Origin: Escherichia phage PP01
Sequence record: NC_054930.1
Length of the DNA stretch: 64,000 nucleotides
Strand: one strand, 5' to 3'
Within the stretch, counting starts at the first letter, position 1. Each line of letters starts with the position of its first letter. Below are positions 37,095 to 38,761 of this stretch, piece after piece. Position numbers and translations under genes: made by a program. Under the pieces are notes generated by a model. It worked only from the letters and a program-made list of their open reading frames with translations, had not been told where the DNA came from and did not search any database.

Positions 37095-37400
37095 CGGCAA
37101 CCTTGTCGGGGTTCCACCTGCTAAGGCAAGTGTTTGTACGAAACGCCGGGATTCGAACCCGGTTATTAAGTAGTTGACGCTACTCAATATTTTTAAAAGG
37201 CCATATCTCGACCATATCCGAACGTTCCGTCAAAAACGCTACTCGGCTTATGGCAAAGATATTTCCTCGAATCGATAATTCGGTGCGCCGTTTCTGCTGT
37301 GATATAAGGGGGCATTAACAAAACATAAAGATTTATTAATGCCAGTCCTTACCCAGGGAACATCAGTCCGACGACTTACCGGTAGCGACCCGGTTTCTTG
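37095..37400 (-). ncRNA. tRNA-like stable RNA region (candidate counterpart of T4 species 1/2 RNAs)
   Basis: No protein-coding signal; T-arm-like CCGGGTTCGAATCCCGG on the minus strand (~37146-37162) without canonical acceptor pairing; lies between tRNA-Arg and a terminator. Boundaries not determined. Confidence 0.35.
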
Positions 37401-37402
37401 TT

Positions 37403-37479
37403 TGGTCGAGACAGAAGGATTCTAACCTTCAACCTACGGATTAGAAGTCCGTTGCTCTATACAATTGAGCTATGCCTCG
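37403..37479 (-). tRNA. tRNA-Arg (anticodon TCT), CCA encoded
   Basis: Hand-folded cloverleaf on minus strand: acceptor CGAGGCA/TGTCTCG, anticodon loop CTTCTAA, T-arm GAAGG-TTAGAAT-CCTTC, discriminator A then CCA; 5' end abuts the segB stop. +/-2 nt. Confidence 0.75.
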
Positions 37480-37482
37480 TAA

Positions 37483-38148
37483 TTAAAATTTCATTTTTCG
37501 ACCTTTAAACCATCCTTCTGGAATTGGGTCAGTTTTCTTAATACGTTTAGAAACTTTTTCATCCAATGAATGAATCCACATCATGCCAAATTGGGAATTC
37601 TTTTCACCTTGTTGGTGTTTATTTCTGGCGTGAGATTCTTTCATTTTATTAATAGTTTCAGGAGTATGGGTCTTACCCAAGAAAGATTTAGTATTTAAAA
37701 ATTTCTCTCTATACTTAGGATTATCCCAAAGCTGTTTAAACCTTTCTGAACCCATTTTACGATATTTTTCTTTAAGGTCTGGGTCGTTCTCAAATCTGGT
37801 TTTAAAAGCGGCAGCTCCTTTTAAGGAAGCTTCTTTCTTTTTATCCAAATATTCTTTAGTGTTTAAATGGTCCCAACCACCTTCACCACCTAATTTCAGA
37901 TTATAAACATCAGGGCGCTTTAAAAACTCTTCAGTCACAATATTCTTTTCTGACTCAAACATAGAGGTTTTATCGTCAAAGAACTCTAATATTTCTTTAG
38001 AAAAATTTTCTATACCATATTTATCTTGGGCTCTTTTTAATAATTTACCAGAACCCATATATCCATCATCTAAATTTTCGGTAGAATGAGCGCCTATATA
38101 GATTTTATTATTAATTTTATTTGTTATTTTATAAATGTAATGGAACAT
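37483..38148 (-). CDS. segB: GIY-YIG homing endonuclease SegB
   Basis: 221 aa; GIY-YIG motif HYIYKITNKINNKIYIGAHST...YMGSG; embedded in the tRNA cluster as in T4. Confidence 0.85.
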   Translation of the reverse strand: MFHYIYKITNKINNKIYIGAHSTENLDDGYMGSGKLLKRAQDKYGIENFSKEILEFFDDKTSMFESEKNIVTEEFLKRPDVYNLKLGGEGGWDHLNTKEYLDKKKEASLKGAAAFKTRFENDPDLKEKYRKMGSERFKQLWDNPKYREKFLNTKSFLGKTHTPETINKMKESHARNKHQQGEKNSQFGMMWIHSLDEKVSKRIKKTDPIPEGWFKGRKMKF

Positions 38149-38189
38149 AAATATCTCCTATTTCTAAGAGTATTTATGTTCCCAAAATA

Positions 38190-38261
38190 TGGCCCTGGGT
38201 GGAATTGAACCACCATCTGGCGATTATGAGTCGCTTGCTTGAACCTTCCAGCTACAGGGCC
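38190..38261 (-). tRNA. tRNA with anticodon CAT (Ile, AUA-decoding, by analogy to T4; or Met)
   Basis: Acceptor GGCCCTG/CAGGGCC, anticodon loop CTCATAA, T-arm GGTGG-TTCAATT-CCACC. +/-2 nt. Confidence 0.7.
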
Positions 38262-38267
38262 TTGATA

Positions 38268-38340
38268 TGCTGATTGACGGAATCGAACCGCCGACGTCCT
38301 CATTACAAGTGAGGTGCTCTACCTACTGAGCTAAATCAGC
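38268..38340 (-). tRNA. tRNA-Thr (anticodon TGT)
   Basis: Acceptor GCTGATT/AATCAGC, anticodon loop CTTGTAA, T-arm GGCGG-TTCGATT-CCGTC. +/-2 nt. Confidence 0.8.
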
Positions 38341-38347
38341 GAAATTA

Positions 38348-38434
38348 CGGAGGCGATAGGATTTGAACCTATGAGTCGCCGGAGCGACTGCCGGTTTTCA
38401 AGACCGGTGCATTAAACCACTCTGCCACGCCTCC
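38348..38434 (-). tRNA. tRNA-Ser (anticodon TGA), long variable arm
   Basis: Acceptor GGAGGCG/CGCCTCC, anticodon loop CTTGAAA, T-arm ATAGG-TTCAAAT-CCTAT; 2-nt spacer to tRNA-Pro. +/-2 nt. Confidence 0.8.
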
Positions 38435-38436
38435 AG

Positions 38437-38510
38437 TCTCCGCGGCAGGATTTGAACCTGCGACATTCTGCTCCCAAAGCAGACGCTCTACCAAACTGAG
38501 CTACACGGAG
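38437..38510 (-). tRNA. tRNA-Pro (anticodon TGG)
   Basis: Acceptor CTCCGTG/CGCGGAG (one G-U), anticodon loop TTTGGGA, T-arm GCAGG-TTCAAAT-CCTGC. +/-2 nt. Confidence 0.8.
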
Positions 38511-38523
38511 TAAATTAAATTTG

Positions 38524-38594
38524 AGCGGATAATGAGAATCGAACTCACATCATCAGATTGGAAGTCTGAGGTAATACCATTATACGATATCCGC
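38524..38594 (-). tRNA. tRNA-Gly (anticodon TCC)
   Basis: Acceptor GCGGATA/TATCCGC, anticodon stem-loop TCAGA-CTTCCAA-TCTGA, T-arm GTGAG-TTCGATT-CTCAT. +/-2 nt. Confidence 0.8.
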
Positions 38595-38600
38595 AAACTT

Positions 38601-38687
38601 TGGTACGAGAAGTGGGACTCGAACCCACAAGGAAATCATTCCGCAGCATTTTAAGTGCTGTGCCTTTACCAATTTGACCATTCTCGC
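38601..38687 (-). tRNA. tRNA-Leu (anticodon TAA), long variable arm, CCA encoded
   Basis: Acceptor GCGAGAA/TTCTCGT, anticodon loop CTTAAAA, T-arm GTGGG-TTCGAGT-CCCAC; 1-nt spacer to tRNA-Gln. +/-2 nt. Confidence 0.8.
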
Positions 38688-38688
38688 G

Positions 38689-38761
38689 CTGGGAATAAAG
38701 GACTCGAACCTTTGCATCCTGGAATCAAAATCCAGTGCCTTACCAACTTGGCTAATTCCCA
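38689..38761 (-). tRNA. tRNA-Gln (anticodon TTG)
   Basis: Minus strand reads TGGGAATTAGCCAAGTTGGTAAGGCACTGGATTTTGATTCCAG...GGTTCGAGTCCTTTATTCCCAG, matching my recollection of T4 tRNA-Gln. +/-2 nt. Confidence 0.85.

Follow-up and report, generated by a model that had tools for sequence, protein, structure and literature searches.

What do the two RNAs encoded next to the transfer RNA (tRNA) genes of phage T4 and its relatives, rnaC (species 1 RNA) and rnaD (species 2 RNA), do for the phage? Both have been known as abundant and stable RNAs since the 1970s. Here, we approach this question from one locus on the minus strand of a 64,000-nt stretch of Escherichia phage PP01 (NC_054930.1; hereafter the window), where eight tRNA genes and the homing endonuclease gene segB are followed by a non-coding tract. 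With high confidence, the region is the T4-type tRNA operon of a Tequatrovirus, in T4 arrangement. The cluster belongs to the textbook knowledge of T4: the original prediction, made from the sequence alone, described what is already known from T4, and its confirmation chiefly validates the hand folding on which it was based. The residual value of the locus lies in rnaC and rnaD, the rest being ordinary. We analysed gene identities and order, homology with T4, codon usage, RNA secondary structure and loop-loop covariation, and draw on the T4 literature for RNA processing, RNA stability and SegB activity.

The tract is a non-coding stretch of 340 nt, running from 37402 through the terminator (ending at 37063), and is homologous to four T4 features, namely rnaD, rnaC, a trailer and a terminator (Table 1). 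It had been predicted to hold RNAs of the T4 species 1/2 type, and alignment identifies homologues of both RNAs. The further suggestion of one RNA of about 300 nt at 37095-37400 does not hold, as the tract consists of two RNAs, the trailer and the terminator, at 37401-37063.

Over 156 nt, the rnaC homologue shares 98% identity with the annotated T4 rnaC, and a covariance model of rnaC finds it as the sole match in the window (161.5 bits). The homologue set includes 31 distinct sequences from about ten genera of Tevenvirinae (Tequatro-, Mosig-, Gapriver-, Karam-, Winkler-, Kanagawa-, Moon-, Gelderland- and Jiaodavirus, together with Marfa-like Klebsiella phages), all between 139 and 145 nt long despite very different internal sequence, and with long invariant blocks in common. 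A loose pattern, TTCGAGGA-N100-130-GGCGTTYCGT, was found at 109 viral and at least 120 bacterial loci. The rnaC model detected nothing new at E <= 1 among the 89 new viral loci and gave 16 bits or less for all 100 bacterial loci scored out of the at least 120, and the loci outside the known T4-like ones were chance matches; with bacterial loci covered to this extent, rnaC is not proven to be absent from bacteria. With a tighter 3'-end pattern, the Jiaodavirus copies were the sole addition. In Karamvirus, rnaC lies between tRNA-Trp and tRNA-Gly, as an ordinary tRNA gene would, and in Dhakavirus CLBP2 (locus 1504-1700) it is precisely absent, the end of rnaD (GGCGCACC) being followed after 2 nt by the trailer (ACACUUGCC). 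This position and this clean absence indicate that rnaC behaves as a tRNA-gene-like module, and in T4-type genomes it looks like a module inserted into a unit of rnaD plus trailer, or deleted from that unit in Dhakavirus. An Rfam search of the contiguous rnaD and trailer of Dhakavirus, where a known family interrupted by rnaC might have been restored, returned tRNA-Arg only.

At minimum free energy (-50.6 kcal/mol, z = -5.4), the window copy of rnaC folds into a four-way junction. In the covariance-model alignment of the 31 homologues, paired cells make up 93.1%, compared with 35-45% in slid controls, and double-sided changes occur in 23 of the 36 pairs. The pairing looks the same in a MAFFT alignment of 27 sequences, and RNAalifold returns the same four-way junction for the divergent type-B set alone. 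The T-arm-like element GGTTCGAATCC is located at 37159-37149 within the non-coding stretch, as predicted. It had also been described as having no canonical acceptor stem; this description needs to be revised, since the T arm is flanked by an unusual, covarying acceptor-like stem of 7 bp (P1). At one pair of P1 (columns 4-141), 20 sequences have G-C and the other 11 have A-U, without exception. In the Jiaodavirus type, U-A and A-U replace both U.U mismatches of the stem, which is then a perfect CGGUAUG/CAUACCG helix.

A contact between two loops of the fold is predicted as well. The P4 loop UUGACG (37233-37228) is complementary over 6 nt to the P5 loop CGUCAA (37179-37174), and this complementarity is present in all 31 homologues in three covarying versions: UUGACG/CGUCAA, UUGGCG/CGCCAA in the Marfa-like Klebsiella phages and UUGCAG/CUGCAA in Jiaodavirus. 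The loop-loop helix was outside the covariance model, so that the alignment was not fitted to the loop pairing. Within one molecule, the contact would require that the long arm (~27 bp) is folded back towards the 10-bp arm. Compensatory changes in every helix, together with this tertiary contact, point to selection on the folded RNA. A further covariation involves the T arm, where the GG of UGGCCU (37200-37201; columns 78-79) varies together with T-loop positions 55-56 (37151-37157; columns 125-131), GG accompanying UUC in UUCGAAU-type T-loops in 28 of the 31 sequences and CG accompanying UGC in UGCAUKC loops in the remaining three. This hints at a G18:U55 / G19:C56 contact in rnaC similar to that of the tRNA elbow, probably reflecting one or two evolutionary events only.

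Tentatively, we propose that rnaC is a selected tRNA mimic of closed architecture, confined to the Tevenvirinae and without an Rfam entry, in which a minihelix of acceptor and T arm is joined to two arms locked by the covarying 6-bp loop contact (or two molecules are joined by it). It may serve the takeover of the host or counteract its defences, for instance by sequestering, as a decoy or sponge, a host factor that binds tRNA or an immune nuclease directed at tRNA. Taken as a whole, this reading is possible rather than probable. Our main account of the locus, the T4-type operon, has rnaD and rnaC follow tRNA-Arg on the same transcript, and takes rnaC as a tRNA-derived module in which the pairing of both ends produces an acceptor-like stem on top of a genuine T arm. 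Such a combination would be the type of substrate that RNase P recognises, and the long bent arm and the 10-bp hairpin would stand in for the D and anticodon arms. When rnaC was tested for a cloverleaf, no RF00005 match was obtained even at E <= 10 and there was no anticodon stem-loop; lacking an anticodon loop, rnaC would be a stable mimic of tRNA and not a decoder.

Several points weigh against the main account. The two U.U mismatches in P1 are invariant except in the Jiaodavirus type, and the 3' end is U-ACA, not U-CCA, in most homologues, so that on paper rnaC is not a standard substrate for RNase P or the CCA-adding enzyme. The covariation stems from few lineages, with three loop versions and three architectural types, and the P4/P5 contact could form between two molecules instead of within one. 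The RNA ends in PP01 are transferred from the T4 annotation. Further, the roles of rnaC and rnaD were called unknown in a review from 2010 (PMC3014915) and again in 2022 (PMC9697503) and 2025 (PMC12685909). As a separate observation on the 3' end, the rnaC homologues of Klebsiella phages (six loci) have U-CCA after the stem, as in the complete 3' end of a tRNA, and all others have U-ACA.

In laboratory hosts, T4 can do without its tRNA region, which would suit a relic, and the tract could accordingly be read as debris of decaying tRNA pseudogenes and spacer, stable only through a retained T arm and without function. The placement of rnaC among tRNA genes like one more of them in Karamvirus, its precise loss in a Dhakavirus and the fact that none of the three publications cited above reports a function for either RNA are compatible with this reading. 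However, a length held within 139-145 nt across about ten genera, long invariant blocks and compensatory changes in all helices and in the loop-loop contact are not what is expected of debris, and rnaD acquired a convergent single-nucleotide polymorphism (SNP) in three experimental-evolution lines (PMC12685909). The comparative pattern thus leaves the relic reading disfavoured, and we regard it as unlikely.

A decoding function has been attributed to the 3' two-thirds of rnaC (37230-37138), which can be drawn as a tRNA whose acceptor stem has 8 bp (ACGGAACG/CGUUUCGU) and whose variable arm is long. ARAGORN calls a 95-nt tRNA-Met(CAT) in the homologue from Enterobacter phage PG7, where RefSeq also annotates it (locus 1554-1648), Rfam matches 37138-37230 weakly to tRNA-Sec (17 bits, E = 5), and this inner stem is paired in 86.6% of cases among 27 sequences. 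It shows, however, no double-sided covariation, one of its positions is unpaired in 15 of the 27 sequences, and it competes both with P4, which is 100% paired with all five pairs covarying, and with the loop-loop helix. Direct reading of the sequence shows no anticodon stem in the rnaC of PP01 or T4, the thresholded searches with ARAGORN and Rfam called no tRNA at rnaC in the window, and the annotation of T4 rnaC places its 5' end at the outer stem, 45 nt further upstream. We rejected the inner tRNA for its absent covariation and its conflict with P4 and the loop-loop helix, and consider it very improbable. A coding tract is less credible still: short open reading frames (ORFs) occur on both strands, including one of 42 aa at 37321-37193, and hypothetical proteins are annotated across the region in many GenBank records, but these ORFs begin at TTG or are shorter than 45 aa, their strand and position vary between records, and the substitutions compensate RNA helices and do not follow codons. 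In T4, moreover, the tract is annotated as misc_RNA on the basis of directly characterised RNAs. This reading was rejected for the inconsistency of the ORFs between genomes and the RNA-helix pattern of substitution, and the chance that it is right is minimal. Public annotation of rnaC homologues is itself inconsistent, with tRNA-Met in PG7 and hypothetical coding sequences on either strand elsewhere (e.g. one locus at 407-514).

As a proposed tRNA mimic, rnaC invites comparison with other RNAs that use parts of tRNA. In the tRNA-like domain of transfer-messenger RNA (tmRNA), which is processed by RNase P, pairing of the ends likewise yields an acceptor stem stacked on a T arm, and a large insertion replaces the D and anticodon arms. 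In contrast to tmRNA, rnaC has no tag ORF, no G3.U70 and no pseudoknot ring, and its 3' end is mostly UACA and not CCA; a tmRNA was rejected as a candidate, as neither ARAGORN nor Rfam found one in the window. YrlA (RF02553), viral tRNA-like structures (TLS) and mascRNA are similarly modular RNAs of T arm and acceptor that are used beyond decoding. rnaC differs from YrlA and the other mimics in having no Ro-binding helix and in its kissing-loop arms, which are specific to it, and YrlA was also rejected in the absence of an Rfam match. The comparative model across about ten genera offers concrete mutants and probes for functional tests, and could found an Rfam-style family that would end the annotation of rnaC as tRNA-Met or hypothetical protein.

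For rnaD, the structural evidence is thinner than for rnaC, because the conserved parts are invariant in the set available. Among ten homologues, the 5' 45 nt and the 3' 25 nt are conserved without variation, including a 5' hairpin that is the same in all (ACCGG/CCGGU) and what may be a closing helix (GUCGUCG/CGGCGCAC), and the central hairpin is variable and covarying. A hammerhead ribozyme, suggested by the elements CUGAUG ... GAAAC, was rejected: the core reads CUGAUGU here and CUGAUGG in T4, compared with CUGANGA, A9 is absent and there is no Rfam match at E <= 10. More generally, neither rnaD nor rnaC has a family in Rfam, the weak tRNA-Sec match in rnaC being the only one at E <= 10. The convergent SNP mentioned above arose in rnaD when a T4-like phage was evolved on a semi-permissive host (PMC12685909), and in T4 both RNAC and RNAD were seen as late RNAs by Northern blot (PMC9697503).

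Table 1. Features of the PP01 tRNA operon and of the rnaC fold, in the order of transcription, with positions in the window.
Feature	Position	Strand	Basis and remarks
T4 middle-promoter-like site	38831-38855	-	TGCTTTA (38855-38849), 12 nt, TATTAT (38836-38831); read from sequence
tRNA-Gln (TTG)	38689-38761	-	ARAGORN; Rfam 67.4 bits; CCA not encoded
tRNA-Leu (TAA)	38601-38687	-	ARAGORN; Rfam 57 bits; long variable arm; CCA encoded (ACCA); G1.U72
tRNA-Gly (TCC)	38524-38594	-	ARAGORN, Rfam; followed by CAA in 3' flank
tRNA-Pro (TGG)	38437-38510	-	ARAGORN, Rfam; without CCA
tRNA-Ser (TGA)	38348-38434	-	ARAGORN, Rfam; long variable arm; without CCA
tRNA-Thr (TGT)	38268-38340	-	ARAGORN, Rfam; without CCA
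CAT-anticodon tRNA, most likely tRNA-Ile2	38190-38261	-	ARAGORN, Rfam; position as T4 tRNA-Ile
segB, free-standing GIY-YIG homing endonuclease, 221 aa	37483-38148	-	ORF including stop; Pfam; identity with T4 SegB
tRNA-Arg (TCT)	37403-37479	-	ARAGORN, Rfam; CCA encoded (ACCA); variant scaffold
rnaD (species 2 RNA) homologue, 120 nt	37282-37401	-	Alignment to annotated T4 rnaD
rnaC (species 1 RNA) homologue, 139 nt	37137-37275	-	Identity with T4 rnaC; covariance model
P1 acceptor-like stem of rnaC	37274-37268 / 37145-37139	-	7 bp, CGAUUCG/CGUUUCG, two central U.U mismatches
Long arm of rnaC	37267-37197	-	Ends in P4 hairpin 37238-37223, loop UUGACG 37233-37228
P5 hairpin of rnaC	37189-37164	-	10 bp, loop CGUCAA 37179-37174
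T arm of rnaC	37162-37146	-	Directly 5' of the P1 3' strand
Conserved 3' trailer	37087-37134	-	Alignments including T4 and Dhakavirus
Intrinsic terminator	37058-37086	-	10-bp GC-rich stem, GAAA loop, T run

The remainder of the operon follows T4 closely. T4 (NC_000866, 70908-72530) is annotated with the predicted order of Gln, Leu, Gly, Pro, Ser, Thr, Ile, segB, Arg, rnaD and rnaC, and shares with PP01 the orientation, the tight spacing, the position of segB between tRNA-Ile and tRNA-Arg, and the trailer and terminator after the two RNAs; the terminator is also annotated at the same site in fPS-90. The region aligns colinearly with T4 from end to end at 93% identity, the rnaD/rnaC tract being nearly identical and the flanks of segB being the most divergent portion. 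The window is nevertheless distinct from T4. Its SegB has only 83% identity, the gene downstream of the region differs, and the scaffolds of tRNA-Arg and of the CAT-anticodon tRNA are very unlike those of T4 tRNA-Arg and tRNA-Ile. A total of 113 phage records span at least 80% of the region, the best being Tequatroviruses of Salmonella, Yersinia and Escherichia with about 98% identity. In tRNA-Gln, the anticodon stem is CUGGA/UCCAG in PP01 as opposed to UAGCA/UGCUA in T4, with all five pairs changed and compensated. Outside this stem, tRNA-Gln is identical to that of T4, and tRNA-Pro has similar compensated stem swaps; going by the alignments, we interpret these swaps as cassette-like mosaicism within tRNA genes.

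Regions of the T2L/RB1/RB3 type have the block from Gln to Ser, rnaD and rnaC in common with PP01, but lack segB and carry tRNA-Met, Tyr, Asn and Arg where segB would stand, and are natural targets of SegB (PMC2330249). PP01, unlike these, has segB and neither tRNA-Tyr nor tRNA-Asn. The Yersinia phage PYps10T (locus 176-1003), a close relative, is of the T2L type, with ten tRNAs (Tyr and Asn added) and no segB, and the segB-bearing arrangement is thus one of at least two alleles among near-identical Tequatroviruses.

All eight tRNAs and anticodons predicted by hand folding were called by both ARAGORN and the Rfam model RF00005, on the minus strand at 37403-38761, and the two methods agree that there are no others in the 64-kb window. 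The RF00005 scores range from 57 to 73.5 bits (E from 1e-9 to 3e-14), above the gathering threshold of 29. The first seven genes together take up 572 bp and are separated by 0-12 nt, very near the predicted 570-bp block with tight spacers; tRNA-Gln and tRNA-Leu are 1 nt apart, tRNA-Pro and tRNA-Ser 2 nt, and tRNA-Arg follows about 700 bp further downstream. Reading of the 3' flanks of all eight agrees with the expectation that only Leu and Arg encode CCA. Compared with T4, encoded CCA has been lost in tRNA-Gly and tRNA-Thr, which are followed by CAA and TATCAA, respectively, where T4 has CCA (ACCA for Thr), and the host CCA-adding enzyme is consequently required for six of the eight tRNAs in PP01 and for four of the eight in T4.

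The CAT-anticodon tRNA is most likely a tRNA-Ile2 that reads AUA, as the T4 gene in this position is annotated as tRNA-Ile, and the closest full-length E. coli genes (80.8% identity) also carry a tRNA-Ile annotation; we infer that its C34 is converted to lysidine by TilS. The tRNA-Arg has a variant scaffold, with a D-loop (AAUUGUAUA) that lacks G18-G19 and a T-loop (UUAGAAU) with A56, which from the sequence implies that a U19:A56 tertiary pair replaces G19:C56. The same scaffold is present in fPS-90, RB69 and several IMG/VR contigs.

In T4, tRNAs are processed from dimeric and multimeric precursors, CCA is added after transcription, and the Pro-Ser dimeric precursor is without CCA (PMC11143913). 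The tight spacing and absent CCA in PP01 fit this classical scheme, by which the genes would be transcribed as multi-gene precursors, in which host RNase P would cut each 5' end, host exonucleases would trim the 3' ends and the host CCA-adding enzyme would complete the six tRNAs without an encoded CCA.

The eight anticodons all read A-ending codons (CAA, UUA, GGA, CCA, UCA, ACA, AUA and AGA). In 70 non-overlapping ORFs of the window, which has a GC content of 34.9%, these codons occur per 1000 codons at 12.7 (AGA), 13.6 (AUA), 30.5 (UUA), 23.7 (GGA), 21.0 (UCA), 18.5 (ACA), 24.7 (CAA) and 13.4 (CCA), or approximately 1.6 to 6 times their usage in E. coli. These frequencies fit the accepted role of phage tRNAs in codon supplementation, in which the tRNAs would supply A-ending codons that AT-rich phage genes use often and for which the tRNAs of E. 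coli provide poorly. The phage tRNAs may also replace host tRNAs destroyed by tRNA-cleaving defences.

The ORF predicted as segB, between the CAT-anticodon tRNA and tRNA-Arg, is 83% identical to T4 SegB across all 221 residues and has a GIY-YIG domain (PF01541, 26.6 bits, cut-off 22.6), with YIYKITN...YIG in the N-terminal part of the translation. Its stop is exactly 3 nt (TTA) ahead of tRNA-Arg, where about 3 nt had been predicted. The recognition site of SegB comprises 27 bp with the T-psi-C motif of tRNA genes at its core; the enzyme cuts preferentially after CCAR, and it homes into phages lacking segB, such as T2L (PMC2330249). A cleavage motif of RAWTSGAAC has been reported, and in T6, SegB-driven segmental amplification of tRNA-Tyr allows escape from the tRNA-cleaving Septu defence (PMC13096335). 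Site-specific cleavage and homing have been demonstrated for the T4 and T6 enzymes (PMC2330249, PMC13096335), and after the defeat of Septu, phage tRNA arrays and SegB are now seen as counter-defence tools (PMC13096335). In PP01, SegB would act as a selfish element that cuts tRNA genes at their T-loop motif in relatives without segB, and would in this way copy segB and the flanking tRNA genes into them. By analogy with the CCAR preference, the loss of CCA in tRNA-Gly and tRNA-Thr might lessen self-cleavage. The T-loop UUAGAAU of tRNA-Arg breaks the published SegB motif (GTTCSAWTY), and since this variant also occurs in RB69 and fPS-90, it is not strictly tied to the presence of segB.

A sigma-70 promoter scan gave nothing above chance. 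About 70 nt ahead of tRNA-Gln there is a promoter-like site with a MotA-box-like TGCTTTA, and we take this site (38831-38855) to resemble the T4 middle-promoter consensus. Late-promoter-like sequences were additionally observed just upstream of segB (CATAAATA, ~38175) and just past the terminator (TATAAATA, ~37050).

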